From an archaeon (GTDB taxonomy: Archaea > Iainarchaeota > Iainarchaeia > Iainarchaeales > CSSED10-239): a DNA stretch of 32,000 bases. The first letter of the stretch is position 1. Each line of letters begins with the position of its first letter. The DNA is taken from positions 12,728 through 44,727 of the forward strand of contig DAOOUC010000007.1 of the NCBI GenBank assembly GCA_035390665.1, read 5' to 3'. The translations under genes and the position numbers were made by a program. The notes beneath the pieces were generated by a model. It did no database searches. It was not told where the DNA came from and saw only the letters and a program-made list of their open reading frames with translations. This document shows positions 1,099 through 24,152 of the stretch, in pieces.

Positions 1099-1104
1099 TA
1101 ATTA

Positions 1105-1809: not shown

Positions 1810-2113
1810 GTTTAACTCACACAAATAGTTAGTAAATTTACTATATATTACATATATAGAAATATATTTAAATAGAAAAAAACAGAAAAAACAAGTAAAA
1901 AACACCATTTCTTGGACAACTCGTCAACAAACACATTTATATATATTTTTAATCTAAAATATATTATATCTATTTGAGACAATTATGTTTACCTAAGTTC
2001 TTAAATTTTGTTCTTTTGGGTATGCACAACAAAAGTTATTTTTTGTTGGCACAGAGAAATCACAAAGTGATTTGTCTTGTGAAGGAACTTTTCTTTCAAG
2101 AAAAGGGTCTCGT

Positions 2114-2196
2114 GCAGAGGTGGCGGAGTGGCCAAACGCGCTAGCCTGCTAAGCTAGAGTCGAAAGACTACACGGGTTCGAATCCCGTCCTCTGCG
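2114..2196 (+). tRNA. tRNA-Ser (anticodon GCU)
   Basis: Hand-folded cloverleaf. Acceptor GCAGAGG/CCTCTGC, anticodon stem CTAGC/GCTAG with loop CT-GCT-AA, long variable arm AGTC-GAAA-GACT, T arm ACGGG-TTCGAAT-CCCGT, discriminator G. No encoded CCA, and an oligo-T tract follows. Confidence 0.93.
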
Positions 2197-2268
2197 TTTT
2201 TCTTTTTCTAAGAATATCTTTAAATATATTATGTATTACTATATTGATACACTAAAATGTGATATATT

Positions 2269-2529
2269 ATGTTTAAAAAAAAAGTTGATTCAGATAGATT
2301 ACTGCAAGAAACCATTTATGGAACAGGCGGAATACCTAAACCAGAGGTTGGTGCAGTTTCAGTCGGTGCAAGTAAGAGAAGAAGAAATGAGCAAAATTTC
2401 TTACAGAGATTATTTAGCCCAAGAAAAGTTGTAAGGCCTGCACCAGGAAAGCCAAAAAAACCAGGATTTTTTGAAAATCTTTTTTCAGGCAATGGTTTTA
2501 AAAGAAGAAAAGGTATTGATGGTTTTTAA
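2269..2529 (+). CDS. hypothetical small basic protein (86 aa)
   Basis: ORF track. Its stop overlaps the start of the next gene (TAATG at 2526-2531), suggesting translational coupling. I recognise no domain. It competes with an alternative-frame ORF at 2231..2434. Confidence 0.5.
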   Translation: MFKKKVDSDRLLQETIYGTGGIPKPEVGAVSVGASKRRRNEQNFLQRLFSPRKVVRPAPGKPKKPGFFENLFSGNGFKRRKGIDGF

Positions 2530-2903
2530 TGTTAAAAAATAAATTTATTTATTGGATACCAAGAATTTTATCAATATTATTTATTCTCTTTTTAGCAATG
2601 TTTTCTTTAGATGTTATTACTCCAGAGGCAAGTTTTTTGGAGATTGTGGGCGGATTACTAATTCATAATATCCCTGTTTTTATTTTAACTGCAATTTTAA
2701 TAATTTCTTGGAAATATGAAATTGTAGGTGCTATTGCTTTTATTTTGGGAGGATTATTATATCTTCTAAATGTTTTGATTACTATAATTAGGACACCACC
2801 ATTTGAATGGTTTTATTTATCTTGGATTTTATTTATTTCAGGACCAGCATTCTTGATAGGAATATTATTTTTAATTGGCTGGTTAAAAAAAAAGTCTAAG
2901 TAA
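2529..2903 (+). CDS. hypothetical integral membrane protein (about 4 TM helices)
   Basis: ORF track. Four long hydrophobic stretches ([61 protein letters not shown]). Confidence 0.65.
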
Positions 2904-4593
2904 ATTCATTTTCTGAAGTATTATTCCCGTAAAAGCTATTAAGTTTATTACTCATACAACTCATAATTGTTAAGCAATCTGTATCTGAAATATATTTTGT
3001 GTCTTGATAATTAATGTTGATAATATTATATTCATTTAATGGATCAATATCGTTTGGATAATCAGGAACAGGAGTAATTGGTTGTGGCATATTTTCAATT
3101 CTTCGTTGTAAATTTTCTTGTCTAATTCTTTCATTTTCTTGTCTTTGTATTTCAGCTTGATTTTGTCTTTCTAATTCTTGTTTAGCAATAGGAAGTAAAT
3201 CGTTTATTTCTTTACCTGATTTAGAAATTAATTCTCCAGAATATCCATAAATTATTGAACATTCTAATTTAGCATCTTCATCTTTTATCCATATTCTAAA
3301 ATATCCATTATTCCCCCAGTGTTCTCCCCAATTATTTTTTAATATCCAGTATTCTTTATTTCTAATCTTATCTGTGCCCCATCCAACAATAGTAACACCG
3401 TGAGCAAGGGTTGGAGGGTCTTCGTCTGATATTTTAGACCAAATTCCAGATTCAAAATTATAAAGAGACGGATAAAAATAAATAGATGTTGCTAGAGGAG
3501 ATAATTTAAGTGCTTCTTTAATATTATTGATTGTTTGAGTTTTATTTATAGTTCTACAATCAGAATTATCAATTCTAAAATGAGATTCTATAAAATACTT
3601 GGTATAGTTGTCATTTTTTCTAGGCAAATAAATTGAATTTTCAGTATCTGAATCAGAAGTATCTGGACAAAAATTAGAGTTTATATTATTAATATTTAAT
3701 CGGCCTTGACCAGTAATTAAAAGAGGGGTAATATTCATATTTGTTGTAGTTTTCTTAGTAGTTCTATTTAAATTAACAATTTCACAAGAATCATATGCCA
3801 AATAATTTAGTTGATTTTCTAAAGGAACACCAAAAGGAACTTCTCCAGCAGCTAAACTTAATTGGGTTCTTGTTTGTAAATGTTCTGTGCCTGCAATTAA
3901 TTTATTTTCTAAACCTAATTCTCCTTTTATTTTATTTTTTAAATAATTATTAAAATCACTATTTTGATTATAAGAGGCTAAAGATAAGAATTTAATGTAA
4001 TAATCTAATCCAGCACCACGACAGCCAATGAAATTAGAATAGGATATAAGATATTGTTCAGATAAGTTTAATTTATTATTTTCTGAAAGATTATCTTTTC
4101 TATTTATGTATCCTTCTAAAGCTCCAAGAATTGCAAAAGTGTTACAAGAACCACAAGTTGTTTGATTTTTACCTAGCGTCATATATGTTGCCCAATTTAT
4201 TTGGTCTTCAAATTCATAAATTGGAGCAGAAATGGTGGCATCGGTTAATAAGAATAATCCAGTATTCCTATTTTTTTCTTTTTTCATAGAATTTAAGTCA
4301 TCATATTTGTAGTTTTCTGGAAAGAAATTATTTTTATTTTCGGTATTAAAAATAGGCGATGGATCAGGATTTGCATTTGAATAAGAATCAATTTCATCAA
4401 TTCTTTGAGTGATTGGAATTTTCATAATTTCTTTAGAGTAATTTGTAGCAACCCAAGATGCATTTTGTTTTCTTAATTGTTCATTAATAATATCTGCTTG
4501 TGTTTTTTCTTTAGATATTGATAAAAATAACATTATAGAGATAATTATTATAGAAATAATAATTGCAATTATGGAGTTTAATTTTTTATTCAT
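2896..4593 (-). CDS. membrane-anchored papain-family (C1A) cysteine peptidase
   Basis: N-terminal anchor [17 protein letters not shown]. Papain catalytic motifs occur in canonical order: [13 protein letters not shown] (Gln-6 plus catalytic Cys), [11 protein letters not shown] (His), [20 protein letters not shown] (Asn-Trp). The C-terminus has a charged coiled-coil-like stretch [29 protein letters not shown]. Confidence 0.85.
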
Positions 4594-5401: not shown

Positions 5402-5782
5402 TTAACATTCTCCTTCTTTTAATATTGGTACATTGTCTGCTGTACATGCGTTTCCATAAGTAACTCCATTAACTCCACAAACAGGCATATATTCCATTGT
5501 ACAAACCTTTCCTTCTGTTGGAGGATATTGCCCTTTAAAACATTCTTCTCTATAAAGCTTCCATTCTTCACATTGAGATCCATCTTCAAATGTACAGATT
5601 CCATATTCTCCATGTTCTGAATTGACAATATTTAATGTACCTCCAAGATTTTTACAATAAACAGAAGCAGGGTTTGCAATTTCAGTTGTATTCTTTTCTG
5701 AAAAAATTAAAAATCCTGCAACAATTCCTGATACAAAAACAATTGCCATAATTATTCCTATTATTATTCTTTTATTTATCAT
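5402..5782 (-). CDS. membrane-anchored DUF333-like plus Kazal-like (serine protease inhibitor-type) domain protein
   Basis: N-terminal TM IIIGIIMAIVFVSGIVAGFLIF. NPASVYCKNLGGTL...GEYGICTFEDGSQCEEWKLYREEC matches the DUF333 pattern as I recall it. The C-terminal CTMEYMPVCGVNGVTYGNACTADNVPILKEGEC matches the Kazal core PVCG-x-[DN]G-x-TY-x-N-x-C. Its start overlaps the upstream gene by 4 nt. Confidence 0.75.
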   Translation of the reverse strand: MINKRIIIGIIMAIVFVSGIVAGFLIFSEKNTTEIANPASVYCKNLGGTLNIVNSEHGEYGICTFEDGSQCEEWKLYREECFKGQYPPTEGKVCTMEYMPVCGVNGVTYGNACTADNVPILKEGEC

Positions 5783-6648
5783 TTATTTTCACCTTTTTTA
5801 AATACTTCTCCAAGGAAAAGTTTATTACTTACTCCGTATTTTTTTATATCAATATATCCTTTATCTATTAGTTTTTTAATATTTCTTGAAACTGTGCCTT
5901 TAGGCAAGAAACTTTTAGCAGTTATTATTTTTTGAGATTGTCCTTCGTTTTCAATAATTATCTTCATAATCTTTTGTTCATTCTCATTTAGTCCCAAAAG
6001 TAAATCTTTTCCTTTTTCTGTAGTTTTTATTTCTTTTTTAGTTTTTGGTTTCTTTTTAATTAATAGGTATGCCCCAACTAAAATAATTGGAATAATTAAT
6101 AAATAATAATAATAATTATTAGATTCAACATTCTTTAAATCATAATTAATATTTATTTCTTTGATATCTTTAAAAGAAATAACAATTTGTCCATTGATTA
6201 CTTGAACCGAAGAAGAGATGGGCGTTTCTTTTATTTCTGAATTTTTGGGTAGAGTTATTTTTAAGTTATTAGATGTGTCTAAATATCTAGATTTATAATT
6301 TAGATTCCAAAGTCCATTATTTTTATTTGTGTAATAATCAGTAAGAGAGATGATTTCTATATTTAATGTTTCTGGTATGTTGCTTAGGTTAATTGTTAAT
6401 AATTCAGTTGTGTATGAAAAATTAGAATATTTTTGATTATTAATCTTTACAACAACATCATAGCTTGGAACAATTGGTAATTCTAATTTTTCTGAATTAA
6501 TGTCTGTAATTATTAATTTTTCTGAAATTTTATAACTATCAAATTTATCTGCAAATATTTCTGTGTCTTGAGATATAACATTGTATGCATAATTATAATT
6601 AATTATTGTAATAAAAACAAAAAATATTAATATTTGTTTCTTAATCAT
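5779..6648 (-). CDS. membrane-associated winged-HTH transcriptional regulator (extracellular domain - TM - cytoplasmic wHTH)
   Basis: Signal or anchor ILIFFVFITIINY, a roughly 165-aa extracytoplasmic region, TM YYYLLIIPIILVGAYLLI followed by KKKPKTKK, then a MarR/TrmB-like wHTH NENEQKIMKIIIENEGQSQKIITAKSFLPKGTVSRNIKKLIDKGYIDIKK. This architecture recalls COG2512-type predicted archaeal membrane-associated regulators. Confidence 0.7.
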   Translation of the reverse strand: MIKKQILIFFVFITIINYNYAYNVISQDTEIFADKFDSYKISEKLIITDINSEKLELPIVPSYDVVVKINNQKYSNFSYTTELLTINLSNIPETLNIEIISLTDYYTNKNNGLWNLNYKSRYLDTSNNLKITLPKNSEIKETPISSSVQVINGQIVISFKDIKEININYDLKNVESNNYYYYLLIIPIILVGAYLLIKKKPKTKKEIKTTEKGKDLLLGLNENEQKIMKIIIENEGQSQKIITAKSFLPKGTVSRNIKKLIDKGYIDIKKYGVSNKLFLGEVFKKGENK

Positions 6649-6725
6649 AATTATTCACTAATATTATATTACAATCATATATTTAAAGTTACTTTTTTTA
6701 AAAAAAATAAAAAAAGAAGAGAAAT

Positions 6726-7724
6726 TTATTCTTTAATTTCTCTTATAGCAGATATTCTTTTTTGTATTATCTTTTCTCCGAAAGGAATAAACCCTAAGAA
6801 TTTCTTTTTTTCTTTAACTTCAAAAACATATTCTGGATTTTCTGATTCTGTTTCTAAAATAATTTCTCCGATTATCTTTTCAGAATCAATTTTGTTTTCT
6901 TGAAGTATTTGTGTTACAGGTATTATCTTTTTTGTAGAGTTATTGTTTGTTATATAAATTTCAGAATCCTTTATTTCCATTTGAGATCTTGTTCTTAATT
7001 GTTCTTTTGGTTTTTCTGCAGTTGTTAATTCTTCTTTGTTTGGTTTAGAATTTTGTGCATTAGGGTTTGCTTGTATTTGATTTTGATTTCTGGCTCTTGC
7101 ATTTTCTGCAACAATTCCAGAATTGTCAGAATCAATAATTAAATAATGTATGTTTCCAAGATTATTCCCTTGAATTTCGGTTCCATCATTTAGTTTGATT
7201 GTGGCTTTAAATTTAAGCAATTTATCTATTCCACAAGAATTAATAAATCCAGTCATATTTTCTTGTGCAAATTCTTCTGTATCGTTTTCTTTTACATAAC
7301 CAATCTTTCCATGAAATAAAGAATCTGTTGAGCTTTTGCTTAATTTTCTTGTAAAACAAGCTTGTTCTTGTCCGTCTGTAAAAATTTCAAGAACTACCAA
7401 TTCTATTTCTGAAAGATTAATAGTTTTAGTATTAGCAATAGGCAATAATTCTAAATCTAAATAATAGCCTTCATTTTTCTTTAAATGATAGGTATTAGTT
7501 TCAGAATTAAAATAAGCACTAGAATTACATCTTTCTTTATATGGCCCAGTATAATTTTGATCAAAACGCACAGGTACAACAATTTGTGCTCTGTCTATTG
7601 CACAAGGAATTTGAAGTTCATAACTCATAGCTTCTTGAGCATAAAGTTTAGGAACAACAGCAAGTGCAAAGATTGTTAATGCAAATATTGCAACCACATA
7701 ATTTATTATTTTTTTTTCATTCAT
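6726..7724 (-). CDS. secreted hypothetical protein (332 aa), possible PepSY-like C-terminus
   Basis: Signal peptide VVAIFALTIFALAVVPKLYAQEA. AGGAGG Shine-Dalgarno (rc of 7731-7736) upstream of the ATG at 7724. Q/N-rich linker ARARNQNQIQANPNAQNSKPNK. The C-terminal EYVFEVKEKKKFLGFIPFGEK weakly resembles PepSY-type repeats. Confidence 0.7.
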   Translation of the reverse strand: MNEKKIINYVVAIFALTIFALAVVPKLYAQEAMSYELQIPCAIDRAQIVVPVRFDQNYTGPYKERCNSSAYFNSETNTYHLKKNEGYYLDLELLPIANTKTINLSEIELVVLEIFTDGQEQACFTRKLSKSSTDSLFHGKIGYVKENDTEEFAQENMTGFINSCGIDKLLKFKATIKLNDGTEIQGNNLGNIHYLIIDSDNSGIVAENARARNQNQIQANPNAQNSKPNKEELTTAEKPKEQLRTRSQMEIKDSEIYITNNNSTKKIIPVTQILQENKIDSEKIIGEIILETESENPEYVFEVKEKKKFLGFIPFGEKIIQKRISAIREIKE

Positions 7725-8086: not shown

Positions 8087-11000
8087 ATGAAATATACAAA
8101 AATACTATCTATAATTCTTATAATTTTAATATTGCCTTTTATCTTTGCAGAAGATGAAGGCAATTCTATTATTGTTCCTTTGGCAATAAATGGAACAGAA
8201 GGAGAATTAGATGTTTTTACAATACAAACAAACTATCCAGAAATAGAACTTGATGAATCTCAAGACCTAATTACAAGTTTTTCTTCTTTTGATCAGAATT
8301 CATCATTTTCTTTAAATTCTCAAGTTAATTATAAATCTCTTAATATTCCTCATTATTTCTTAAAAGAAAATCAAAATACTAAAAAAAGAATATATCCATT
8401 TAACCAAGGAAGAACTTATGTAATAAATAATTCTTCGCAAGAAATTGCAAAAGACAAAACCTTAGAGCTTAAATTAAATTTGTCTAATACCACACAAAAA
8501 GTTTATTTAATTATTGACCAAGCGCAATCAAATCCAATACCAGCTATGACTCAATTTGTAAATATTAGTTCTTCAACAATTGAGATTAACACCATTCCAA
8601 GATATCTAAAAATAAATAAAAGTTCAATTGTAAATGGCAAACTACTTTTAAATCTTAAAGCTAATATTCCTAATTTTTCTTTACAAATAATAGAATTGGA
8701 TAATAATCAAAAAGTTAGTGGAGTTTATAGTACAAATATTTTACAATTAGATTATGATTCTTTTAACAAATATACTTTATTTCAGATAAATAGAAACCTT
8801 ATTGAATTTTATTGTCCTTATTGTCATCTTAAAGACTATGGGATAAATGAAAATGGTTTTTCTTCTTGTGGCAAGTCTGTTTTTGAACAAGAGAAGAAAT
8901 CAATAACGGAATATTTAAGTGCGAAAGAAAATGTTTGTCTTTTACCAGATGGTTCAAGGATCTCTGGTTTTACAAATGAGTCCTTGGAATTATTTGGTTT
9001 GAATAGATTATATTTTGAATGGAATGATAATATTCCTTCTGATTTCTTTGATTATGGAGAATACTATGTAGATCAAGATCAACTAAGAATTGCAGTTTCT
9101 AAAAAATTAGATGAGATAAGTAATAATAATTATGTTGAAATTGAAACTACAAAATACAAAAAAGGAAAAAACACCTTAATTTCAAAAGTTGGAACAGATA
9201 TAGAATATGACTTGTCTGAAGTTACAGAACTTTCAACAAACAGTTCAATAAACGAGTCATTGGATTTTTCTATTGCAGTATTAAATTCAATTCCCGAAGA
9301 ATATAAAAAATTAACAATAATTGATTTAACAAATAATGAACCATCTGTAAGTGTTTCTGAATTTGATAGAATAATGCAAGAGATTTTAGTTTCAAATTAT
9401 TATAAAGTAACAGACTATCACACACATTATCAAATAACTCTTGAGAAATATTTAAGTTCAATTAGTAATTTTAAAATATCAAGAGCAAATAACGATATTT
9501 ATTCTAAACTTTTATATGGCCTAGAATATAAAACACAAGGTTATTCTAATGTTTATTTATCAGAAGGATTAAATTATTTTATATATAATATTAAACCATT
9601 TGGAGAAGATATAGAAGCAATTCTAAATAATGAGCACACACAATTGTTTGGAAACTATTGGAAACTAAATCTTTTAGATAATAACCAAACCACACAACCA
9701 AAAACAGTTATTGTAAATCTTTCAGAGATTGTTCCTGAAAGAAAAGAAGCAAATATTAGTTTTAATGATCCAACTACAGATTTATATGTTAATTATTATT
9801 CAGGAAATCAATATTTTTCTAATAATCCTTTATTTTTAATGCCACTAAATGTATTAAGTTACAATCGTGGAAACTTTTTTGAGAATACTACGTCTGTTAC
9901 TTCAAAGCAACCAGATATCATAAACAATTATAATAATCTCCAAGAAGGCAAAATTGTTTCTATAGATACAACAAGTTCTGATTTTGTAATTAATTTAACA
10001 AAACCAATAATTATTACTAAAGATACTGGAGAAGAAATTTTAGTAAAGTATTATAATGGTAGAGAATATGTTAATTATTCTAATAATTTAATAAAAGTAA
10101 ATAATTCAAGAGAAGACTTTCCAACTAAAGAAACAATTGTTATTTATCCGCCAAAGTCAGAATTTGTAAATTTTCCATTAATTGTTGAATCATCAACTCC
10201 TTTAATTTTTAATAAAGAAGTTATTGAAAATAAAGAGCAAGAAAAATATGTATATAGATTAAATTCAGAAACTCAGAATTTAAGCTTTTCTGAATTAATA
10301 AACAATATTTCAAATAATCAAACTTGTTTTTCAGTTATAGATAATAGTTTTTCTTTATGGATAAATGTTGATCAAGAATTAGATGTTACAAAATCTTATA
10401 GTTATCAAGAATTTGCAAGTGCTTTACAATCAGAAGAAAATAGTCCTTCTGAAAGTCTTGCAACAACTTTAAATCAAAACCCCGAAGTAAATACAACCTT
10501 TGCAGTATATACAATTGATGAATCTCAAAATCTTTACAAACAAGTACAAGCAGTTAATTCTTATATTCAAACAGAAACAGAGACAAGGAATTTAAAAATT
10601 TTAGAAAGTTATAATGAAGTATATCAAAAAGTATTAGAAAGTGAGCCTGCATTAAAAAAAGACTTTATAAATTTATTAAATTGTAATGAAACTTTAATTT
10701 GTAGGATTTCAAAAACAAGATTTACTCCAGAGGGTTCCTTCTTTGAGAGATTTAAAAATGTGTGCATAGACAATACTCCTACAGAATGTGTAAGTTTCTG
10801 GTCAAATCCAAAAGTAAGTTATTGTTCTGCATTTATTAGAAATTTTAATAATTATTATTTTGGATATAGATTTGATTCTGCAAATGCTTGGGATTTAGCT
10901 AAACAACAAAATAATAAAAGTATTTGGAAGGCAACAACCGGCTCTCTTTCGGAAAGTAGTTATGATTATTTAATTCCTGGTTCTGTTCTTGGAATTAAGC

Positions 11001-13060
11001 ACAATAATACAAGTTATTGGGATAAAGAATATAGTCATGTTGTTGTTTATTTAGGGAAAATGGGTTCTAGTCATTATATTATTCATTCTTGGTTAAATAC
11101 CTTAAAAATTGAAAAACTAGATGTTTTCTTAAAAACAACAGCCAGAGGAAAAAATGCATATGGGTATTATGAAGATGGGCAAATAAAAGAAGTAATGATT
11201 TCAAATAACCTTTATCAGAAATTAAGAACAAAAGCTAGAATTGAAGGAATTTCTCTTGGTTCTGTTGATTCTTCTATTTATCAAGGCATTGTTTCTAATT
11301 ACATATTAGATTCATTTAACAATTTTGAAATGGTTTCAACAACTCAGAGAAGCACACTAAATCAAAATATGTATCAGGAATTAGAGGTTGTTTATAATAG
11401 AATTTTAAATAAGGACTTTAGTATTTATTATAAAACAAACTATTCTAATAATTCAACACCAGAAGTAAATCAAAACATAAGATTAACACCAGGAGAGCCA
11501 ATGATAATAATTCTTGGCAAATATAAAAAAGTATTTTTAGTTAATAAAGAGAATGGAATAACTAATATTATTTCTGAATATCCAATAGCAACAGGAGTTA
11601 ATGGTTTTGGTTGTGTGAACGATAGTTTAAAAACACCAATTGGGCTATTTAAAATTGTACAAAAAGTTGGACAAAATTGTAGTCCTTTACAAGTTATAGG
11701 TGCTAATGGTTGTCAATATCAAAACGGAAACCCCGTACTTGCAAGTTATAATTCAGGAACAGCTAAAGTTGTAACCAGAAAACTTGTTCTTGATGGTCTT
11801 GAAAAAGAAAATATTGGTGTTGGTTGTGACACAGGTAATAGAAACACAATATATAGAGGGATATTTATACACGGAACAAATTATGAAAACTCAATGGGAC
11901 AACAAAGATCTCATGGTTGTATTAGAATGTTAAATAATGATGTTATTACTTTGTTTAACAATGTGCAAAACGGAACGTATGTTTATATTTATAATTCTGA
12001 AACAAGTTATTCAAGTCTTTTAGATTTAGAAAACAAATTAACAAATTCAGGAAACAACTTAGAATTCACATTAACTAGTGCAAGAAAACCATCAAATTCT
12101 AGAATTACAGCAACGAAGACAATGCAAGATGTTGACAATTATATTGATGAAAGAATAAATACATTTAGAATGTTAGATAATACAACAGGAGTAAGTCTAA
12201 GTTATGGTAGAGAATGTAACACAACAACCTTGAAGTTTCCTTGTTTTTTAAAAGAAGCCTTAGATGTAGAATATGATGCACATGTAATAAATCCACAATC
12301 TTCTGAGTTTAATTATATTGTTTTTAGAGTAACTAAAGCTTTTGGTTATACTTTAGAAGAAACAGCACAATTTTGGGGAAGTCTTTCTCAAGAGAGTGGA
12401 ACTTCAACAAACATAAGTGGATCACAATCACAATATGGTAATTCTCTTACAGGAAAACCAGCATATGGTATTGCACAAATAGAAAAAGCACCATGGTCAC
12501 AATATAATGCAAATAGATACACATTTGACGAAATGGTTCAAGATTTTAATTCTGTAGATTTATCTAGTATTATTGAAAGAGACCCTAGAATTGGAACCGT
12601 TACAGGCAGTAATAATAAAATAGACAGTAGAACAGAAATAATTGCTTTATTAGATTTAATTTGGACAAATAAAAGTAAATATGCATCTGTTGTTTTTTCT
12701 GCAGGATTAAAAAGATATATTGGTAGAAAGATAATTACAACTTCTCAAATTAATTACAATTCTGGAACAATAAGAGAGCCGTTTTGGCATGCTCATAGAA
12801 CGACATACGATCATTTAAATTCAATTAATTTTAATTTTGCTGTAATTTATAAATATAAATATACAGGAACTCAAAGAATGTATGATGGTATAAAAAGATA
12901 TTCTGGATTAGATGGCGGAGAAGACACAATTAAAACAATTGCATTAAAGCTTGCAAATTATCTTGCTTTTAAAAAAGAATATTATATGTATAAATATGGA
13001 ATAATAAATGGAAATCATTCTGATTTATTGGCAAGTATGATAAATGCAGGGATAATTTAA
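8087..13060 (+). CDS. giant secreted multidomain protein: unknown N-terminal ~900 aa, then NlpC/P60-like, YkuD L,D-transpeptidase and SLT-like (lytic transglycosylase) regions
   Basis: Signal peptide MKYTKILSIILIILILPFIFAEDE. YCSAFIRNF...LIPGSVLGI...EYSHVVVYLGKMGSSHYIIHSW follows the NlpC/P60 Cys/His pattern (nt ~10785-11115). TPIGLFKI...IFIHGT...QRSHGCIRMLNNDV is the YkuD core (nt ~11498-11995). SQESG...AYGIAQIE is SLT-like (nt ~12290-12750). Confidence 0.85.
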   Translation: MKYTKILSIILIILILPFIFAEDEGNSIIVPLAINGTEGELDVFTIQTNYPEIELDESQDLITSFSSFDQNSSFSLNSQVNYKSLNIPHYFLKENQNTKKRIYPFNQGRTYVINNSSQEIAKDKTLELKLNLSNTTQKVYLIIDQAQSNPIPAMTQFVNISSSTIEINTIPRYLKINKSSIVNGKLLLNLKANIPNFSLQIIELDNNQKVSGVYSTNILQLDYDSFNKYTLFQINRNLIEFYCPYCHLKDYGINENGFSSCGKSVFEQEKKSITEYLSAKENVCLLPDGSRISGFTNESLELFGLNRLYFEWNDNIPSDFFDYGEYYVDQDQLRIAVSKKLDEISNNNYVEIETTKYKKGKNTLISKVGTDIEYDLSEVTELSTNSSINESLDFSIAVLNSIPEEYKKLTIIDLTNNEPSVSVSEFDRIMQEILVSNYYKVTDYHTHYQITLEKYLSSISNFKISRANNDIYSKLLYGLEYKTQGYSNVYLSEGLNYFIYNIKPFGEDIEAILNNEHTQLFGNYWKLNLLDNNQTTQPKTVIVNLSEIVPERKEANISFNDPTTDLYVNYYSGNQYFSNNPLFLMPLNVLSYNRGNFFENTTSVTSKQPDIINNYNNLQEGKIVSIDTTSSDFVINLTKPIIITKDTGEEILVKYYNGREYVNYSNNLIKVNNSREDFPTKETIVIYPPKSEFVNFPLIVESSTPLIFNKEVIENKEQEKYVYRLNSETQNLSFSELINNISNNQTCFSVIDNSFSLWINVDQELDVTKSYSYQEFASALQSEENSPSESLATTLNQNPEVNTTFAVYTIDESQNLYKQVQAVNSYIQTETETRNLKILESYNEVYQKVLESEPALKKDFINLLNCNETLICRISKTRFTPEGSFFERFKNVCIDNTPTECVSFWSNPKVSYCSAFIRNFNNYYFGYRFDSANAWDLAKQQNNKSIWKATTGSLSESSYDYLIPGSVLGIKHNNTSYWDKEYSHVVVYLGKMGSSHYIIHSWLNTLKIEKLDVFLKTTARGKNAYGYYEDGQIKEVMISNNLYQKLRTKARIEGISLGSVDSSIYQGIVSNYILDSFNNFEMVSTTQRSTLNQNMYQELEVVYNRILNKDFSIYYKTNYSNNSTPEVNQNIRLTPGEPMIIILGKYKKVFLVNKENGITNIISEYPIATGVNGFGCVNDSLKTPIGLFKIVQKVGQNCSPLQVIGANGCQYQNGNPVLASYNSGTAKVVTRKLVLDGLEKENIGVGCDTGNRNTIYRGIFIHGTNYENSMGQQRSHGCIRMLNNDVITLFNNVQNGTYVYIYNSETSYSSLLDLENKLTNSGNNLEFTLTSARKPSNSRITATKTMQDVDNYIDERINTFRMLDNTTGVSLSYGRECNTTTLKFPCFLKEALDVEYDAHVINPQSSEFNYIVFRVTKAFGYTLEETAQFWGSLSQESGTSTNISGSQSQYGNSLTGKPAYGIAQIEKAPWSQYNANRYTFDEMVQDFNSVDLSSIIERDPRIGTVTGSNNKIDSRTEIIALLDLIWTNKSKYASVVFSAGLKRYIGRKIITTSQINYNSGTIREPFWHAHRTTYDHLNSINFNFAVIYKYKYTGTQRMYDGIKRYSGLDGGEDTIKTIALKLANYLAFKKEYYMYKYGIINGNHSDLLASMINAGII

Positions 13061-13783: not shown

Positions 13784-14332
13784 ATGCTTAGAAGAATTTT
13801 AATATTTTTGTGTTTAGTTTTATTTTTAGGAACTTTATTTTATGTTCTTATCGAAAATAATAACAAAACAGAAACAGACAAAACCTATTATTTCGGTTAC
13901 GGAAGTAATATGGATATTGATCTTTTAAGAAAAAGGATTGATAATAATTCTATAGTTCCAGTAAGTTATGCTAAACTTGAAAACTATCGTCTAATCTTTC
14001 CAAGAGGAGTAGGTTCTGTTATTCCTGATGAAACTACAGATGTCTATGGTTGTCTTTTTCTTTTAACAAAAGAAGAAATAGCAAAACTGGATATTATTGA
14101 AGGATATAGAGAAGATAGAAATAAATCATTAAACAGTTACAATAGAGAATGGATAGATGTTTTGTCTCCAAAAGGTAAAAAAGTATCTGCAGAAATCTAT
14201 ATTCAGACAAACAATTCTGATGTAAATGCAAAACCAAGTAATAGTTACAAGCAAACACTTGTAAAAGGTGCAAGCGATTGTTCTCTTCCTGATTTTTATC
14301 AAGAACAATTAAAGCAAATTGAAGTTAGATAA
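13784..14332 (+). CDS. gamma-glutamylcyclotransferase / AIG2-like family protein with N-terminal TM anchor
   Basis: YYFGYGSNMDIDLLRKR matches the YGSN(L/M) GGCT motif, and LDIIEGY supplies the conserved Glu region. N-terminal hydrophobic ILIFLCLVLFLGTLFYVLI. Confidence 0.6.
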   Translation: MLRRILIFLCLVLFLGTLFYVLIENNNKTETDKTYYFGYGSNMDIDLLRKRIDNNSIVPVSYAKLENYRLIFPRGVGSVIPDETTDVYGCLFLLTKEEIAKLDIIEGYREDRNKSLNSYNREWIDVLSPKGKKVSAEIYIQTNNSDVNAKPSNSYKQTLVKGASDCSLPDFYQEQLKQIEVR

Positions 14333-14471: not shown

Positions 14472-15281
14472 ATGAATAAAGTAAATGTATTAGGAAATGA
14501 TATTTCATATTATACAAAACAGGAAAACGACTATATTTCTTTAACAGACATGGTTAAAAATTTAAATAATGGTTTAGTATTAATAGAAAAATGGTTAAGA
14601 AATAAAAACACTATTGAATTTATAGGGATTTGGGAAGAAATGAACAACCCTGAATTTAATTCCCCCGAATTCGGGGGAATTAAAAATGAAGCAGGAACAA
14701 ATAGATTTGCATTGTCTGTAAGTCAATGGATAATTAGAACAAATGCTATTGGAATTAAAGCAAGTGCAGGAAGGTATGGCGGAACCTTCGCACACAAAGA
14801 TATTGCTTTTGAGTTTGCTTCATGGATATCTCCTAAATTTAAATTATATCTTATTAAAGAATTTCAAAGATTAAAAATAGATGAAAGTCAAAGGTTAAAA
14901 CTTGATTGGGACATTAAAAGAAATCTTGCTAAAATTAATTATCATATACACACAGACGCTATAAAGAACAATTTGATTCCTGAAAAGATATCTAAAACAA
15001 AAGAATATTTAATTTATGCAACAGAAGCAGATATCTTAAATCTTGCTCTTTTCGGATTAACTGCAAAAGAATGGAAAAATAATAATCCTAAATTAGAAGG
15101 GAATATTAGAGATTATGCAGATATTTCTCAATTAGTTTGTCTTTCAAATCTTGAAAACTTAAATGCGTTGTTCATTAAAGAAGGAATGGACAAATTAGAG
15201 AGATTGAAAAAATTAAACATTATAGCAATTGAGCAAATGACTATTTTAACTAATCAGCAAGTAATTAAAAAATTAAAATAA
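14472..15281 (+). CDS. KilA-N domain-containing protein (phage/mobile-element-type DNA-binding domain)
   Basis: NDYISLTDMVK...IEKWLRNKNTIEFIGIWEEMNNPEFN...RYGGTFAHKDIAFEFASWISPKFKLYLIKEFQRLK is the pattern of roughly 270-aa bacterial KilA-N proteins as I recall them. Confidence 0.8.
   Translation: MNKVNVLGNDISYYTKQENDYISLTDMVKNLNNGLVLIEKWLRNKNTIEFIGIWEEMNNPEFNSPEFGGIKNEAGTNRFALSVSQWIIRTNAIGIKASAGRYGGTFAHKDIAFEFASWISPKFKLYLIKEFQRLKIDESQRLKLDWDIKRNLAKINYHIHTDAIKNNLIPEKISKTKEYLIYATEADILNLALFGLTAKEWKNNNPKLEGNIRDYADISQLVCLSNLENLNALFIKEGMDKLERLKKLNIIAIEQMTILTNQQVIKKLK
14655..14684. repeat. 30-bp perfect palindrome TTTAATTCCCCCGAATTCGGGGGAATTAAA inside the KilA-N CDS
   Basis: Verified base by base as its own reverse complement; centred on GAATTC. 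It has G5/C5 arms in an otherwise AT-rich gene and encodes ...EFNSPEFGGIK... Confidence 0.95.
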
Positions 15282-15285
15282 GAAG

Positions 15286-15358
15286 TGGTCCTGCCCGGAT
15301 TTGGACCGGGGATCTCTGCCATGTGAAGGCAACATCATAACCGCTAGACCACAGGACC
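15286..15358 (-). tRNA. tRNA-Val (anticodon CAC) with atypical T-loop
   Basis: The rc reads GGTCCTG-TG-GTCT-AGCGGTTA-TGAT-G-TTGCC-TTCACAT-GGCAG-AGATC-CCCGG-TCCAAAT-CCGGG-CAGGACC-A. The cloverleaf is good and the anticodon loop is TT-CAC-AT. The T-loop is TCCAAAT (C at position 55), not the TTCGAAT of the other two tRNAs. The 5' end directly abuts the stop codon of the upstream gene. Confidence 0.8.
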
Positions 15359-15925
15359 TTATTGTAATTTATAGGTTTTTTCTATAACACATCTTCTTGT
15401 TGGTTTTTTAGCTGTAGAATATTTCATAATTGTAATATTATCAAAATATGAATCAAAGTATTTTTCTTTTCCTTTTAAGAATTTCATAATTTTGGGATAT
15501 AGCTTTTCATTACATTCTTCAGTAATAGTTGTGTGCAAATGTATTCCATTGTCTTCAATATTTTTGTGCCAAGTTAGCCATTTTAGTTTTTTTAATTCTT
15601 TGTGTAATTCTAAAATTATATTATTTATTTTTTGCGATTGACTTCCTTTTACAAAAACCACTCTTTTATGAAAATTATCAAATCCACCAACTTTTATTTT
15701 TTGTTTAGTGTGTGTTTTTGAAAATTTAGAAAGAGTTTCTTTTAATTTCTCTAATTGTTTTGTATTTGCTTTAAATTTGTATTTTAAAGTAAAGTGTGCA
15801 TAATTGTTTGCTTTCTTAGTGTGCATAAGACCAAATTCATTAGCGATTGCGCATACTAAATCTCTTCTATAGTTATCTATTTCTTTATTATGCAAAAAAA
15901 ACAAACAATATTCCATATTATTCAT
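15359..15925 (-). CDS. 2H phosphoesterase superfamily protein (LigT / 2'-5' RNA ligase-like)
   Basis: Two H-x-T/S-x motifs about 85 aa apart: YAHFTLKYKF and IHLHTTITE. IKVGGFDNFHKRVVFVKG resembles the LigT inter-motif strand. It lies 3 nt downstream of aspS. Confidence 0.6.
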   Translation of the reverse strand: MNNMEYCLFFLHNKEIDNYRRDLVCAIANEFGLMHTKKANNYAHFTLKYKFKANTKQLEKLKETLSKFSKTHTKQKIKVGGFDNFHKRVVFVKGSQSQKINNIILELHKELKKLKWLTWHKNIEDNGIHLHTTITEECNEKLYPKIMKFLKGKEKYFDSYFDNITIMKYSTAKKPTRRCVIEKTYKLQ

Positions 15926-17224: not shown

Positions 17225-19162
17225 TTATTTATTTCTAGATATCCTTTTCTCTTTGATTTCTTCATGTAGTTCTTTTATGAACGCTTCAATTTTTTGTTCT
17301 CCAAGTATTTCATTGTCTCTTGTTCTTATGTTTACTGTTTGATTCTTTGCTTCGCTGTCTCCGACTACAAGGATGTAATTGATCTTTGAAAGCTCTGCAT
17401 TTCTTATCTTCTTGTTCATTGTTAAAGCATTATCGTCTATCTCAACACGAAGACCTGCTTCTTTTAATTTCTTAGAAACAAAAGATGCATAGTCATTATG
17501 TCTGTCAGCGATTGGAAGCACAATTACTTGGACAGGAGAGAGCCACAATGGAAACTTTCCTTCAAATTCTTCAACTAAGATTCCTAAAAATCTCTCAACA
17601 CTACCATAGATTGCTCTGTGTATCATTACTGGTCTCATTTTTTCATTATTTGGTCCTTCATAAGTTAAATTAAACTTCTCAGGCATTTGGAAATCAAGTT
17701 GTATTGTTCCACATTGCCAGTCTCTTCCAATTGCATCTTTTAAATGGAAATCAATCTTTGGTCCGTAGAAAGCTCCATCTCCCGGATTAAGCTTGTATTC
17801 TTTACCAAGAGTTTCAAGAACTTCTTTAAGAGTGTCTTCAGCTAAATCCCAAAGTGCTGGATCTCCCATTGCTCCTTCTGGTTTAGTTGAAAGTTCCATG
17901 TGATAAGAAAAACCAAAGACCTTGTAAACTTCGTCAAGAAGATTAATTAAATCAATAATCTCGTCTTTCATTTGATCTCTTGTACAAAATACATGAGCAT
18001 CGTCTTGAGTAAAGCATCTTACTCTAAACATTCCTGAAAGTGCTCCTGAAAGTTCATGTCTATGAACTAATCCAAATTCTCCTGCTCTTATTGGTAAGTC
18101 TCTATAAGAGTATTGATGTGCTTTATAGACTAAAAGATTACCAGGACAGTTCATTGGTTTAACTGCAAAGTCCTGATCATCTATTTTTGTAAAATACATG
18201 TTGTCTTTATAGTGATCCCAATGTCCTGATTGTAACCATAATGATTTGTTTAGAATCATTGGTGTTTTGTTAATCTCATAATTTCTTTCATAAAGTTTTT
18301 CTGTTAAAAACTCAACAAGTTTATTCCATATAATTGTTCCTTTTGTGTGAAAGAAAGGCATACCTGGTGCTTCTTCTTGGAAACTGAAAAGATCTAATTC
18401 TCTTCCAATCTTTCTATGGTCTCTTTTAGCTGCTTCTTCTAATCTAGTTAAGTATTCTTTTAGTTCTGTTGCTGACTGGTAAGATACACCATAGATTCTT
18501 TGTAATTGTTTATTCTTAGCATCTCCTCTCCAGTAGGCTCCTGATGCCTTTAATATTTTGAATGCTTTTATTTTTCCACTTGATGGGATGTGTGGTCCTC
18601 TACAAAGATCAATAAATTCTCCAAGCTTGTAGTAGGATAATTTCTCGCCTTTATCTTTAAGTTCATTTATCATTTCTGTTTTGTAAGGTTGGTTCTTGAA
18701 AAGCTCTAAAGCTTTGTTAAAATCAACTTCATACCTTTCAAACTTAATATCTTCTTTAATAATTTTATTTACTTCTTCTTCTATTTTTTGTAATTCTTCT
18801 TCAGTAAAAGCCCTATTGATATCTACATCATAGTAGAATCCTTCATCAATTGCTGGCCCAATAGCAAATTTAACTTCAGGGAATAATCTTCTAATTGCAA
18901 GAGCCATGATATGTGAAGAACTATGCCAAAAGATTTCCTTACCTTCTTTATCTTTATAAGTTATTACTAAAAAATCTGTGTCTGTGGTAATAGGTGTTTC
19001 TAAGTCTATCAACTTCTGGTTTATTTTAGCAGCCATAGCTACTCTGAGTAGTCCTTCTCCAATATTTTCAAGGATAACTTCCTTTGCTTTTTTTCCTGAT
19101 TCTATTTCTTTAATATTACCATCAGGAAACTTTACATTTATTTTCATTTCTGATTCCTCCAT
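17225..19162 (-). CDS. thrS: threonyl-tRNA synthetase, bacterial-type architecture (TGS + N2 editing + class II core + anticodon-binding)
   Basis: TGS-like N-terminus KINVKFPDGNIKEIESG; editing-domain motif FWHSSSHIMALAIRRLFP; class II core FRVRCFTQDDAHVF and RPVMIHRAIYGSVERF. The start may instead be the second ATG at 19147 (MKINV...), which has GGAGGA 8 nt upstream. Confidence 0.93.
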   Translation of the reverse strand: MEESEMKINVKFPDGNIKEIESGKKAKEVILENIGEGLLRVAMAAKINQKLIDLETPITTDTDFLVITYKDKEGKEIFWHSSSHIMALAIRRLFPEVKFAIGPAIDEGFYYDVDINRAFTEEELQKIEEEVNKIIKEDIKFERYEVDFNKALELFKNQPYKTEMINELKDKGEKLSYYKLGEFIDLCRGPHIPSSGKIKAFKILKASGAYWRGDAKNKQLQRIYGVSYQSATELKEYLTRLEEAAKRDHRKIGRELDLFSFQEEAPGMPFFHTKGTIIWNKLVEFLTEKLYERNYEINKTPMILNKSLWLQSGHWDHYKDNMYFTKIDDQDFAVKPMNCPGNLLVYKAHQYSYRDLPIRAGEFGLVHRHELSGALSGMFRVRCFTQDDAHVFCTRDQMKDEIIDLINLLDEVYKVFGFSYHMELSTKPEGAMGDPALWDLAEDTLKEVLETLGKEYKLNPGDGAFYGPKIDFHLKDAIGRDWQCGTIQLDFQMPEKFNLTYEGPNNEKMRPVMIHRAIYGSVERFLGILVEEFEGKFPLWLSPVQVIVLPIADRHNDYASFVSKKLKEAGLRVEIDDNALTMNKKIRNAELSKINYILVVGDSEAKNQTVNIRTRDNEILGEQKIEAFIKELHEEIKEKRISRNK

Positions 19163-19272
19163 TTTGTTGACACCTAAATTTTCCTATTACCACATAGTTA
19201 ATTTTAGGTAAGGTCTATAATATATTATATAAAACAGAAATAAATATAAATAAACAAGAAAAAGAGAAAAAG

Positions 19273-22200
19273 TTATTGTGGAAGAGGACTTTGAGTATTA
19301 CTTCTCAAGTATGGATAAGTTGTGCTTTCGGTCATATTCCAAATGGTTGAAAAATCCCAACTTGTAAATGTACTTTGTGCTTTCATTTCTGCTGTTGTTT
19401 TTCCAGTTCCTGTTGCACTTGTTGTTTGCCCAGAGGTATTCATATCCCAGAATCCATTAGAGACTGTTATGTATCCTGAACTATATCCAATAAGTCCGCC
19501 TATATTAGATCCACTTCCAAATACTGAACCATTAGAATAACTTCTATATACTGTTGCAGGAAGACCAGATACTTCACTATACATATATCCTACAAGTCCT
19601 CCTACACGACTTAAACCAATTATTGAATTTGTAGAATAACTGTCTTCAATTCTAAATCCGGTAGTAATGTGTCCTGCAATCCCTCCAATATAAGAACTTG
19701 TTCCAGAAACATTTCCTTTAGAATAACAATATGAAATTTTTGCAGTTGTATTGTATGATCCAGATGCCGATCCTATTATTCCTCCTATTTTTTGGTTTCC
19801 AGAAATATTTGAATCAGAATAACTTGTGGTAATTAATCCAGAACCCATATATCCTACAAAACCTCCTACATAATCGTGTGCAGAAATTATTAAATTAGAA
19901 TTACTATATGATATTGTTGCATAATTTGATTTTCCTGCAATTCCCCCAACATAATCATATCCTGTAATATATCCTGTAGTGTTACTTCTTGTAATTAGTC
20001 CATAATTTTGATTACCGGTAATTCCACCAGTATAGTTTTTTCCAATAATGTTTATATCTTCCAAAATTATATCAGATAATTGAGCATATCTATCTGTAGC
20101 TCCAAACAATCCAACATAATCTGTAGCCGAATTATTTATGTAAAGATTATAAATTTTATATCCGTTTCCTTCTAGTCTTCCATTAAATGGACTTGCTAAA
20201 GTTCCAATTGGTGTCCATCCACTTCCTGTGTTATATGGTGAAATATCTAAATCTATGTCATTTGCTAATTTATAATATGCTGTTCTACTTATATCGTTTC
20301 TTATATTATAAAGATCTTCTGCAGTATAAATCATTGTAGGTGTTGGTGGTGCTACTGATGTTGGTGCTGGAGACTGCGTATTATTTATTAAATATGGATA
20401 ACTTGAGCCTTCTGTAATTGCCCAAGGAGAAGTAAAATTATAGGTTGTAAATGTTGCTTGTTGTTTCATTTCTGTAGTAGTTTTTCCTGTTCCTGCTGAA
20501 CTTGTTGTTTGTCCAGAAGTATTTATATCCCAGAAACTATTTGATATTGTTGTGTATCCAGAACTATATCCTATTAATCCTCCAACATTATTATTATATG
20601 ATCCATAAACATATCCTGAAGAATAACTTCTATTTACTGTTGTATAAAGAGATGAAACATCACTATACATATATCCAACAAGCCCACCAGTACGACCTAA
20701 GCCAATTACTGAACTTGTGGAATAACTGTCTTCAATTCTAAATCCAGTAGTTATATGTCCTGCAAGCCCTCCAACATAAGATCCTGTTCCAGAAATATTT
20801 CCTTTAGAATAACAATATGAAATTTTGGCAGTTACATTGTGTGTTCCTGTTGCAGCTCCAACTAATCCACCTACATAATCGTCTCCAGAAATATTTGAAT
20901 CAGAATAGCTTGTCGTAATGGATCCAGTACTTGTATATCCTGAAATTCCACCAACATAGTCTGTTGCAGTAATTGTGGTGCTTGAATGACTTAAAGAAAT
21001 TTCTGCGTAAGAAGAGAGGCCAGTGATTCCTCCGATATAATTTGTTCCAGAAATATTTCCAGTAGTATAACTTCTAGTAACCAACCCGTAATTTTGATAA
21101 CCAGTTATTATTCCAACATAATTTTGTCCTCTAATATTTGCATCTTCAATAATTAAATCTTCAAATCTCGCATACCTATTTGTATATCCAAATAATCCAA
21201 CATAGTCTGTTGTTGGTTTATTGATATATAGATTCCTAATTTTATACCCATTACCATATAATATTCCGGCAAATGCATTAGATGAACTAGTACCTATAGG
21301 TGTCCAGCCTTCTCCTGTGTTATATGGTGAAACATTCAAATCAATGTCGTTTGCTAATTTGTAATAAGCAGTTCTACTTATATCATTTTTCATATTATAA
21401 AGATCTTCTGCAGTATAAATCATAATCGGTGCAGGTGGATCTATTGGTGTTGGTGTAGGAGATTGTGTATTAGTTCTTAAATATGGATAACTTTCTCCTT
21501 CTGTAATATTCCATGTTGTTGTGAAATTTAAAGTAGTATAAGTACTTTGTGATTTCATTTCTGCTGTTGTTTTTCCAGTTCCTGTCGCACTTGTTGTTTG
21601 TCCAGAGGTATTTACATCCCAAAAATTTCCAGTTAAGGTATAATAAGATCCTTTTAATCCAACTAATCCTCCAACATCTGCAGGATAAGATCCTCTAACA
21701 TAACCTGAAGAATAACTGTTTGTTATTGTTGTTTTATAGGACATAGAACTATATGCAGATAAACATCCAACAAGCCCGCCAATTCTATAATTTCCAATAA
21801 CCATTGCTGTAGAATATGAATTATTTACTGCAGTACTGTCTTCCATTATACCTATTAGTCCACCAACATTTAGATTTCCAGTTATTGTTCCATTAGAATA
21901 ACTTGAATTTATTGTTCCTGCAGTAGTAGTTCCTTTTATTTCTCCAATTAATCCACCAACATAATCATTTGCAGTTATTGTTATATCTGATTTACTATTT
22001 GAAACAGTAGCATAGGTCATATATCCTACAAGTCCACCAACATAATTATTTCCGGTAATATTTCCTGTAGCATAATTGGTATTATATGTTCCATAACTAA
22101 TATATCCTGAGAAGATTCCAACATAATTCTGGCCAATAATATTTGCATTTGTTAATCCAAGAGAACTAATATTTACTGCAGAACCATTTGTGTATCCGAA

Positions 22201-23886: not shown

Positions 23887-23907
23887 AGTTTTATCCCTAA
23901 TTATATT

Positions 23908-24152
23908 GGACAGACTGGGGGGCTTGCGGTCTCTTGTAACCTGAAATCCGCATATGCAGGGGTTATGCCTAAAGTGAGGGAAATAAGCAATATTTTGTCC
24001 TTTGTAAGGTTGCCGACGATTCGTCCAGTAAGAGTGGATGATTTAGATAATTCTGTGAGGTCCGGAAGGAAGCAGCAGTAAGCTAGACACCCATTGCTTA
24101 TTGGGGCGCGGATCCGAGATCTTATAGAGTTCAACAAGATGTTGGACTGTTT
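23908..24152 (+). ncRNA. signal recognition particle RNA (7S/SRP RNA), compact; boundaries approximate
   Basis: GC-rich island with no credible ORF. 24056-24074 AGGTCCGGAAGGAAGCAGC is identical to the helix 8 core of E. coli 4.5S RNA, including the GGAA tetraloop. There is a 5' Alu-type element TGCGG-TCTCTTGTAACCTGAAAT-CCGCA and a 10-bp helix 5 pairing AATAAGCAAT (23982-91) with ATTGCTTATT (24093-102). The 5' GACAG can pair with the 3' CTGTT, and an oligo-T tract ends the gene. Confidence 0.85.

Follow-up and report, generated by a model that had tools for sequence, protein, structure and literature searches.

What does an archaeon do with a very large protein that carries the marks of three enzymes acting on bacterial murein? 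The question is raised by a 1657-aa protein encoded in a 32,000-nt stretch of contig DAOOUC010000007.1 (assembly GCA_035390665.1, positions 12,728 to 44,727), which was analysed as a whole and is called the window here. A preliminary description, made from the letters alone, had read an NlpC/P60-type, a YkuD and an SLT-like domain behind a long N-terminal part, and had proposed action on the wall of a bacterial neighbour. We find that the YkuD domain is genuine and that the other two regions are probably divergent relatives of murein enzymes, and we retain action on bacterial murein as the best reading. The gene and its parts are as follows.

8087..13060, + strand: whole gene, 1657-aa multidomain protein, predicted to be exported (open reading frame listing)
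8087..8152, + strand: putative signal peptide or N-terminal anchor, aa 1-22, MKYTK-ILSIILIILILPFIF-A and then EDE (hydropathy)
8159..10651, + strand: N-terminal module of no recognised fold, aa 25-855, about 830 aa
10784..11266, + strand: probable CHAP-like papain-fold cysteine amidase/peptidase, aa ~900-1060
10823-10825, 11036-11038 and 11084-11086, + strand: candidate triad Cys913, His984 and His1000
11567..12001, + strand: YkuD L,D-transpeptidase/carboxypeptidase-fold domain, aa 1161-1305, with His1262 (11870-11872) and Cys1278 (11918-11920)
12299..13057, + strand: probable divergent lysozyme-like domain, 'type A' (muramidase or lytic-transglycosylase-type), aa ~1405-1657
12392-12394, + strand: candidate catalytic Glu1436, with G-I-A-Q at 1461-1464

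The open reading frame is real. No frame of at least 80 aa is listed antisense to it, and an exact-sequence look-up found the identical protein at NCBI (HOW29673.1, 'L,D-transpeptidase family protein [archaeon]', from a TPA metagenome-assembled genome, MAG). The GC content of the gene, 0.25-0.285, is the same as that of its flanks. The sole hydrophobic stretch of the protein is aa 1-25, MKYTKILSIILIILILPFIFA and then EDE, the only one with a Kyte-Doolittle window above 1.6; a scan of the whole sequence revealed no second transmembrane-like segment and no internal repeats. The protein looks exported, by a Sec-type signal peptide or an N-terminal anchor, and the cleavage expected by the preliminary description is putative. 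N-X-S/T sequons are mildly enriched over the whole protein (38, compared with 28.7±4.6 expected). The motifs behind the three signatures lie where they had been placed: YCSAFIRNF at 912-920, EYSHVVVYLGKMGSSHYIIHSW at 981-1002, TPIGLFKI at 1183-1190, IFIHGT at 1259-1264, QRSHGCIRM at 1273-1281, SQESGTS at 1434-1440 and AYGIAQI at 1459-1465. The codons given for Cys913, His984, Cys1278 and Glu1436 were likewise correct. Sixteen full-length homologues were found, with 43-95% identity, and every labelled one is archaeal. Mean identity is 0.72-0.79 in the three catalytic modules, compared with 0.60 in the N-terminal module, and we count this conservation of the catalytic part in favour of a murein enzyme.

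The YkuD core, previously described as clear, was confirmed. Pfam PF03734 scores 63 bits over aa 1161-1301 (gathering cutoff 23.4; E=5.9e-17), and it matches all 17 family members. The catalytic motif IHGTN…RSHGCIRMLNND aligns with that of the solved B. subtilis YkuD (2mtz/1y7m), and the family profile aligns with the same protein over IHGTN…S-GCIRM-N-D. His1262 is kept in 17 of 17 members and Cys1278 in 16 of 17. Among NCBIfam models that of the L,D-carboxypeptidase ElsL scores best (E 3e-24), with 85.6 bits against a cutoff of 270; because this score is far under the cutoff, the domain is not an ElsL equivalog and its subfamily is not assignable. The region is thus a genuine YkuD domain, whose sequence predicts activity on tetrapeptide stems.

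The middle region had been taken for an NlpC/P60-type domain. Its Cys/His motif is conserved and resembles that of cysteine amidases and peptidases, but no profile hidden Markov model (HMM) recognises the region, and it appears CHAP-like rather than NlpC/P60 proper. Among the 17 family members Cys913 is kept in 15, His984 in 16 and His1000 in all, and the three positions persist in relatives at 28-33% identity with three different architectures. One such relative (L009), from a Nanoarchaeota MAG, is a secreted protein of 201 aa (134-739; NCARYA…YTHMIVYLGK…RFAHQF). Another (L017) forms the C-terminus of a 793-aa archaeal protein (1021-3402; WCSAYA…YTHVIVYLGK…FAENF), which is membrane-anchored and encoded beside the archaeal L3/L4/L23 ribosomal operon. 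The Cys/His/His(Glu) set is invariant in A6 and L017. The third residue alternates between His and Glu among relatives, as expected for a papain-like fold. His996 is ruled out as that residue, as the divergent relatives keep position 1000 and not 996; the third candidate is His1000, which is Glu in relatives.

In an AlphaFold2 model of the middle region (predicted local distance difference test, pLDDT, 67; predicted template modelling score, pTM, 0.73), helix 58-69 begins at Cys913, strand 129-137 begins at His984, and His1000 lies within strand 140-147. The modelled topology would be papain-like, the Cys opening a helix and the two His residues lying on consecutive β-strands. In a Foldseek search of PDB with this model, 13 of the 14 matches with a probability of at least 0.38 were CHAP or NlpC/P60 enzymes, none of them significant; they include Gsp amidase, Ly7917, PlyC, DVU_0896 and BACOVA_00612, with PlyGRCS next at a probability of 0.33. 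The high-probability matches in the viral BFVD were mostly endolysins, CHAP proteins and wall hydrolases (best E=4.2e-3, probability 0.97). The top solved structure at a meaningful probability, and rank 2 by E-value, was the CHAP domain of E. coli Gsp amidase (3a30/2ioa). The triad spacing is 71/16 in C913/H984/H1000 and 72/16 in C59/H131/E147 of Gsp amidase, and the segments after the Cys are collinear (CVEFARRFLFLNYGVVFTDVGMAWEI in Gsp amidase and CSAFIRNFNNYYFGYRF-DSANAWDL in the giant protein), sharing C-x2-F-x-R-x-F…G…F-x-D…AW(D/E)(I/L). The overall similarity is not significant, with E=0.015 in hmmsearch against E. coli Gss (from NC_000913.3) as the single target. Gsp amidase works in the cytoplasm on a small-molecule amide; the match therefore bears on fold and chemistry, not on substrate. 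PDB sequence and profile searches with the region returned spurious matches only (a ribosomal protein and a lectin), and a word-indexed homologue search with its profile returned only fragments of the same family. Taken together, motif and model suggest that aa ~900-1060 are probably a CHAP-like papain-fold amidase/peptidase, outside PF00877 and PF05257 by HMM criterion. The domain would define an unannotated family, found so far only in archaea.

The C-terminal domain had been called SLT-like, with less confidence. Its E-S…G-x-A-Q motif is conserved and points to a lysozyme-type glycosidase, but the SLT model (PF01464) does not match the giant protein at E<=10, and the domain appears to belong to a divergent archaeal family. 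Sub-threshold Pfam matches fall on the motif region: Phage_lysozyme2 (best 4.2e-5 in homologues, 0.081 in the giant protein), Transglycosylas (0.0028) and SLT_4 (0.021), each of these two in a single homologue only, and Lys, the C-type lysozyme family (0.002-0.009), in some distant relatives. An exhaustive HMMER search over 1.84 billion representatives found only 26 relatives of the domain at E<=1e-3. Most are embedded in proteins of 600-1400 aa, and those with a name are labelled 'archaeon' or Candidatus Iainarchaeum. One relative combines the domain with a genuine Pfam NLPC_P60 domain, a pairing that we count in favour of a murein enzyme. Another, the 309-aa P0021 (L019, 4534-5463), seems to stand alone; its frame overlaps the preceding 776-aa open reading frame (2219-4549) by 16 nt, and the pair may be one split or frameshifted large gene.

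Glu1436-Ser, together with the Gly and Gln of G-x-(A/G)-Q, is invariant in a 20-sequence alignment of the superfamily, and Glu1436-Ser is kept in all type-A homologues. A segment SVVFSAGL, possibly a stand-in for the SLT motif A-Y-N-x-G, is poorly conserved. The spacing between the two motifs had been noted as about 10 aa longer than in canonical SLT domains. The excess is present, with 28 aa from Glu to Gln compared with 21-22 aa in relatives without the loop insertion; judged by alignment, the roughly 10 extra residues are a lineage-specific loop, absent in P0004, P0021 and the distant relatives. Searched against PDB, profile A5 gave 252 matches at E<=10, and the best 60 of the 252 were all C-type lysozymes (best E=0.016, marginal). 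The alignment with hen lysozyme (E about 0.02) pairs Glu1436 with Glu35 and GIAQI with GILQIN. Asp52 of lysozyme has an Ala as its counterpart in the giant protein, so that only one carboxylate is left, a condition shared with lytic transglycosylases and goose-type lysozymes. JAK2 kinase matches to the C-terminal region (E about 0.1) were discarded as chance matches of low-complexity 'KEYY'. The best sequence link of the domain appears to be with C-type lysozyme and phage tail lysozyme rather than SLT, and the domain is probably a divergent family within the lysozyme-like superfamily, found so far only in archaea.

In six of the 16 homologues (P0005, P0007, P0008, P0012, P0015 and P0016) the sequence diverges sharply right after YkuD, with the junction at about aa 1311-1325. 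The module found there, type B, is about 250 aa long and matches Pfam Glucosaminidase/GH73 at E=1e-5, slightly under the gathering score; its profile found only a marginal endolysin match in PDB (E=0.066). By its sequences, the C-terminal slot is exchangeable between a lysozyme-like type A and a GH73-like type B. The occurrence of a GH73-like glucosaminidase in the same slot of six homologues suggests that the slot is selected for glycan-strand cleavage.

The N-terminal part had been reported to match nothing recognisable, and indeed its ~830 aa gave no Pfam, NCBIfam or PDB match. This module is Asn/Ser-rich, is the least conserved part of the protein, and contains five Cys, including those of an invariant CPYC motif at 243-246. 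Residues ~120-250, ending in FYCPYC, weakly resemble aa 208-350 of P0033, another archaeal protein, in which the lysozyme-like domain of the giant protein recurs as well. Five homologues (P0006, P0009, P0010, P0012 and P0013) are longer by 195-251 aa, inserted immediately behind the signal peptide. We presume that the module serves in target binding or as a spacer that gives reach.

Whether these signatures belong to an archaeon at all depends on the origin of the contig. The clearest domain-of-life marker in the window is an RNA gene close to ftsZ.

23903-24175, + strand: archaeal signal recognition particle (SRP) RNA gene, about 200 nt upstream of ftsZ
24380-25483: ftsZ, about 200 nt downstream of the SRP RNA gene

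The SRP RNA matches RF01857 (Archaea_SRP) with 136 bits, against a gathering score of 96.5, and both NCBI and GTDB records give 'archaeon', in agreement with the archaeal reading of the preliminary description. The window has a GC content of about 28% and encodes three tRNAs, AsxRS, ThrRS, FtsZ, an HhH-GPD glycosylase and several secreted proteins. Among GTDB species representatives the family is confined to 'archaeon' MAGs plus one distant Nanoarchaeota match. Contigs of this kind come from landfill or digester samples, and an 813-kb contig has the FtsZ cluster in common with the window. Synteny is kept on a 142-kb contig, whose homologue of the giant protein is 50% identical, the shared order being ABC ATPase, C1 peptidase, DUF333, winged helix-turn-helix, secreted protein, giant gene, HhH-GPD, GGACT, AsxRS, ThrRS and FtsZ. 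A mis-binned bacterial fragment or a recent bacterial insertion is ruled out by the even GC content, by the SRP RNA of archaeal type and by the synteny, which in several MAGs involves archaeal housekeeping genes. The giant gene is therefore chromosomal and vertically inherited, in an archaeal lineage of low GC that shows DPANN-like features.

How might such a protein work? We propose that it is an exported multi-enzyme protein that breaches or remodels the murein of a bacterial partner, and we hold this with moderate confidence. The CHAP-like module would cut the amide between N-acetylmuramic acid (MurNAc) and L-Ala, or a peptide bond of the stem or cross-bridge. The YkuD domain would act through a Cys1278 acyl-enzyme at the bond between meso-diaminopimelic acid or Lys and D-Ala of tetrapeptide stems, with either stem trimming (carboxypeptidase) or exchange and transfer (transpeptidase) as the outcome. 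The lysozyme-like module would cleave the glycan strand with Glu1436, as a glycosidase or a lytic transglycosylase. With the N-terminal module supplying reach and target binding, the modules could act jointly at a contact site and open or remodel locally the sacculus of a bacterial neighbour or host, which might let the archaeon attach, reach the host membrane or free wall fragments. This would be the same logic as in phage virion-associated lysins and the wall-piercing enzymes of conjugation. The bonds targeted by all three chemistries are present in murein and are not known from pseudomurein or S-layers, and pseudomurein is not known to contain D-amino acids or MurNAc. Since all three predicted chemistries fit murein-specific bonds, a murein target is favoured. 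The archaeal context, together with the absence of murein or wall-synthesis genes from the 32,000-nt window, counts on the same side.

Several observations weigh against this proposal. The Pfam search suggested earlier returned YkuD as a significant match and no NLPC_P60, CHAP or SLT. With NLPC_P60 and CHAP models, neither the protein nor its divergent relatives L009 and L017 gave a match at E<=1 in Pfam, NCBIfam or PHROGs, and in hhalign the genuine NLPC_P60 domain of P0024 aligned at the His motif alone, not significantly (E=0.22). The structural comparison, also suggested earlier, gave the papain-like model of the middle domain, for which Foldseek found no match at E<1e-3 in PDB or BFVD (best 4e-3 to 2e-2). 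The model of the C-terminal domain, built from a 9-sequence alignment, is all-α and too unreliable to use (pLDDT 48.6, pTM 0.46); Foldseek with it gave no meaningful match. The lysozyme-profile E-value of 0.016 at best and the sub-threshold Pfam matches are all marginal. Not every module appears to be active in every member, as two homologues have Ser in place of Cys913 and Asn replaces Cys1278 in some homologue(s). No recognisable peptidoglycan-binding domain (LysM, SH3b or PG_binding) was found in the giant protein. The gene is also syntenic and core-like, neither patchy nor plasmid-borne, unlike the 'weapon' pattern of archaeal peptidoglycan hydrolases (PMC12352652).

This core, syntenic, not weapon-like character would suit a protein that, free or surface-bound, digests murein of dead bacteria and has no specific host. 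Such scavenging would supply a metabolically poor archaeon with amino sugars and amino acids, and its enzymology would be identical to that proposed above. The YkuD domain is nearest to the model of ElsL, a recycling L,D-carboxypeptidase, and the neighbourhood encodes other secreted degradative proteins (the papain-family C1 peptidase, the GLUG giants and the membrane-anchored GGACT protein, listed below). Dead-cell peptidoglycan has moreover been proposed as a nutrient of Pacearchaeota (PMC11537232), which we count on the same side. Nevertheless, about 1650 aa with an 830-aa non-catalytic module would be costly for a diffusible enzyme and resemble a cell-surface contact structure, and the window shows neither a transporter for muropeptides nor genes for their downstream catabolism. 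We regard scavenging as unlikely, although it is the most serious competitor. The marginal profile matches bear rather on the possibility that YkuD is the sole enzyme, the CHAP-like and lysozyme-like regions being structural or binding parts whose likeness to active sites is convergent or accidental. On that view the protein would be an adhesin, with YkuD as its single murein-reactive domain. Neither region has a significant HMM or fold match, and the Ser found at the Cys913 position in two homologues fits the same view. On the other hand, the residues conserved at 23-33% identity are exactly the candidate catalytic ones; motif, spacing and topology of the middle region agree with CHAP; the lysozyme alignment lands precisely on the catalytic Glu; and the C-terminal slot is exchangeable with GH73. 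We give this reduced reading little credence.

Most cultivated DPANN archaea have archaeal hosts, and the substrate could accordingly be other than murein, either an envelope polymer of the archaeon itself or, on an archaeal host, pseudomurein or a glycoprotein surface. For two of the three domains the divergence is too great for a substrate to be read from homology, both of these families were found only in archaea, and CHAP domains also cut amides outside cell walls, Gsp amidase, the best fold match, being such a case. This possibility seems improbable to us, because the YkuD reaction depends on an L,D stereocentre with a D-amino-acid leaving group, and that of lysozyme-type enzymes on β-1,4-linked MurNAc and N-acetylglucosamine, neither of which is known from pseudomurein. 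The alternative C-terminal module is also GH73-like, from a family of murein glucosaminidases. Organisms with pseudomurein are reported to have no transpeptidase orthologues (PMC10117817).

Within the preferred reading, murein of a bacterial partner as the target, YkuD might be not a hydrolase but a covalent grappling hook that joins the archaeal surface to host murein. Here the Cys1278 acyl-enzyme would form with a host stem peptide exposed by the CHAP-like and lysozyme-like modules, and the stem peptide would be transferred to an amine on the archaeal surface, giving a covalent archaeon-to-bacterium junction. The model for such a transfer is the attachment of Braun's lipoprotein by LdtA-C of E. 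coli. If true, this variant would represent a novel way for cells of two domains of life to attach to each other and would show directly that the archaeal lineage of the giant protein has bacterial hosts; we consider it a long shot.

The genes around the giant gene contain further secreted or surface-type proteins.

2896-4593, - strand: Peptidase_C1 (papain-family) protein, 565 aa, conserved in synteny (L001 counterpart at 2600-4291)
5402-5782, - strand: small protein with DUF333 and a Kazal-type serine-protease-inhibitor motif, near the giant gene in related contigs too
6726-7724, - strand: protein of 332 aa, unmatched in Pfam, its N-terminus like a signal peptide; transcribed divergently from the giant gene
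13784-14332, + strand: GGACT/AIG2-like γ-glutamyl cyclotransferase with an N-terminal hydrophobic anchor
14472-15281, + strand: KilA-N domain gene
15285-15358, - strand: tRNA-Val
15359-15925, - strand: LigT-like 2',5' RNA ligase gene
19273-23247, - strand: giant GLUG protein, 1324 aa
27111-30086, + strand: giant GLUG protein, 991 aa

The 332-aa secreted-type protein is kept beside the giant gene in L001-L003, where it has 341 aa, and could be a partner of the giant protein. The GC minimum of the window, 0.21 at 6001-7000, covers the end of the winged helix-turn-helix gene and the 3' part of this secreted-protein gene. The GGACT gene is conserved just downstream of the giant gene, past the convergent HhH-GPD gene, and a putative link of its product to γ-glutamyl-containing wall peptides is conceivable. 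The related contig L001 encodes a second C1 peptidase (724 aa, 18555-20729) between AsxRS and ThrRS, which is absent from the window. The KilA-N, tRNA-Val and LigT genes sit between GGACT and AsxRS in the window. No KilA-N or LigT gene was called at that place in the syntenic loci L001 and L002, for which tRNA genes were not listed, and 14472-15925 may be a small variable or mobile insertion adjoining a tRNA. One of the two GLUG giants carries DUF5018 and the other CHB_HEX_C_1 and Fn3_assoc. They are likely surface or adhesin proteins, which would make the region rich in cell-surface equipment.

Whether DPANN-type archaea have bacterial or only archaeal hosts has been debated so far mostly from annotated murein-lytic genes, and the giant family, conserved, chromosomally fixed and apparently exported, is a concrete candidate for this question. 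It appears to unite three murein bond chemistries, acting on the glycan, the stem-peptide amide and the L,D bond. The exchange of type A and type B suggests adaptation to different wall types, and the isolated domains could serve as new antibacterial lysins. The concept itself is published, both for large murein-lytic DPANN proteins and for archaeal peptidoglycan hydrolases (PMC8204110, PMC9723730, PMC12352652), so that the novelty claimed earlier was overstated. The term YkuD was absent from the 15 top-ranked DPANN and archaea papers listed by a full-text search. What is new is the fusion of YkuD with both other predicted chemistries in one archaeal giant protein, the presence of two of three putative catalytic modules in families found here only in archaea and invisible to standard HMMs, and the type A/type B exchange of the C-terminal module.

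Extracellular proteins that reach ~3000 aa and contain a murein lytic-transglycosylase domain are encoded by Pacearchaeota and Woesearchaeota, and were proposed to bind or degrade the walls of bacterial hosts (Castelle et al. 2021, PMC8204110), and 'vampiristic' Woesearchaeota encode large GH23 proteins (Vigneron et al. 2022, PMC9723730). They are very large, come from small-genome DPANN archaea and carry a domain for murein glycan cleavage, and the giant protein of a small-genome, DPANN-like archaeon resembles them in its size, its predicted export and its probable glycan-cleaving domain; fam00969 of PMC8204110 agrees with it in size, export signal and predicted role. The published proteins are recognised by standard SLT/GH23 annotation, whereas the glycosidase module of the giant protein escapes SLT models. 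The giant protein adds YkuD and the CHAP-like domain, neither of which is mentioned in the two papers.

About 5% of archaeal genomes, notably of Nanoarchaeota, encode modular peptidoglycan hydrolases, and two haloarchaeal ones were shown experimentally to kill a bacterium (Strock et al. 2025, PMC12352652). Those hydrolases, especially diverse in Nanoarchaeota, share with the giant protein their archaeal origin, frequent secretion, bacterial-type murein-cleaving domains and domain shuffling. They are patchy or plasmid-borne, whereas the giant protein is chromosomal, syntenic and far larger. That set was defined by a Pfam catalytic domain together with a Pfam wall-binding domain. In the giant protein Pfam finds only YkuD and no binding domain, so the survey would miss it, and Pfam-based surveys under-count such archaeal murein-directed proteins.

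Among bacterial and phage systems, PrgK of pCF10, TraG of pIP501 and virion-associated lysins of phages carry a CHAP and a lysozyme or SLT module in one polypeptide and open murein locally. They would share with the giant protein the pairing of a CHAP-type with a lysozyme-superfamily module, and the best Pfam link of its C-terminal domain is in fact 'Phage tail lysozyme'. They differ from it in having a few hundred residues, neither YkuD nor an 830-aa module, and domains seen by standard HMMs. For YkuD itself, the Tlde1 effectors of the type VI secretion system use the YkuD/L,D-transpeptidase fold as an antibacterial toxin (PMC9638812). In both cases the YkuD-fold enzyme would be aimed at the peptidoglycan of another cell and not at maintenance of the producer's own wall. 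Tlde1 is a small single-domain bacterial effector, injected by the secretion system and paired with an immunity protein, whereas here YkuD is one module of an archaeal giant with predicted Sec-type export, which would need no immunity gene because its producer presumably has no murein.

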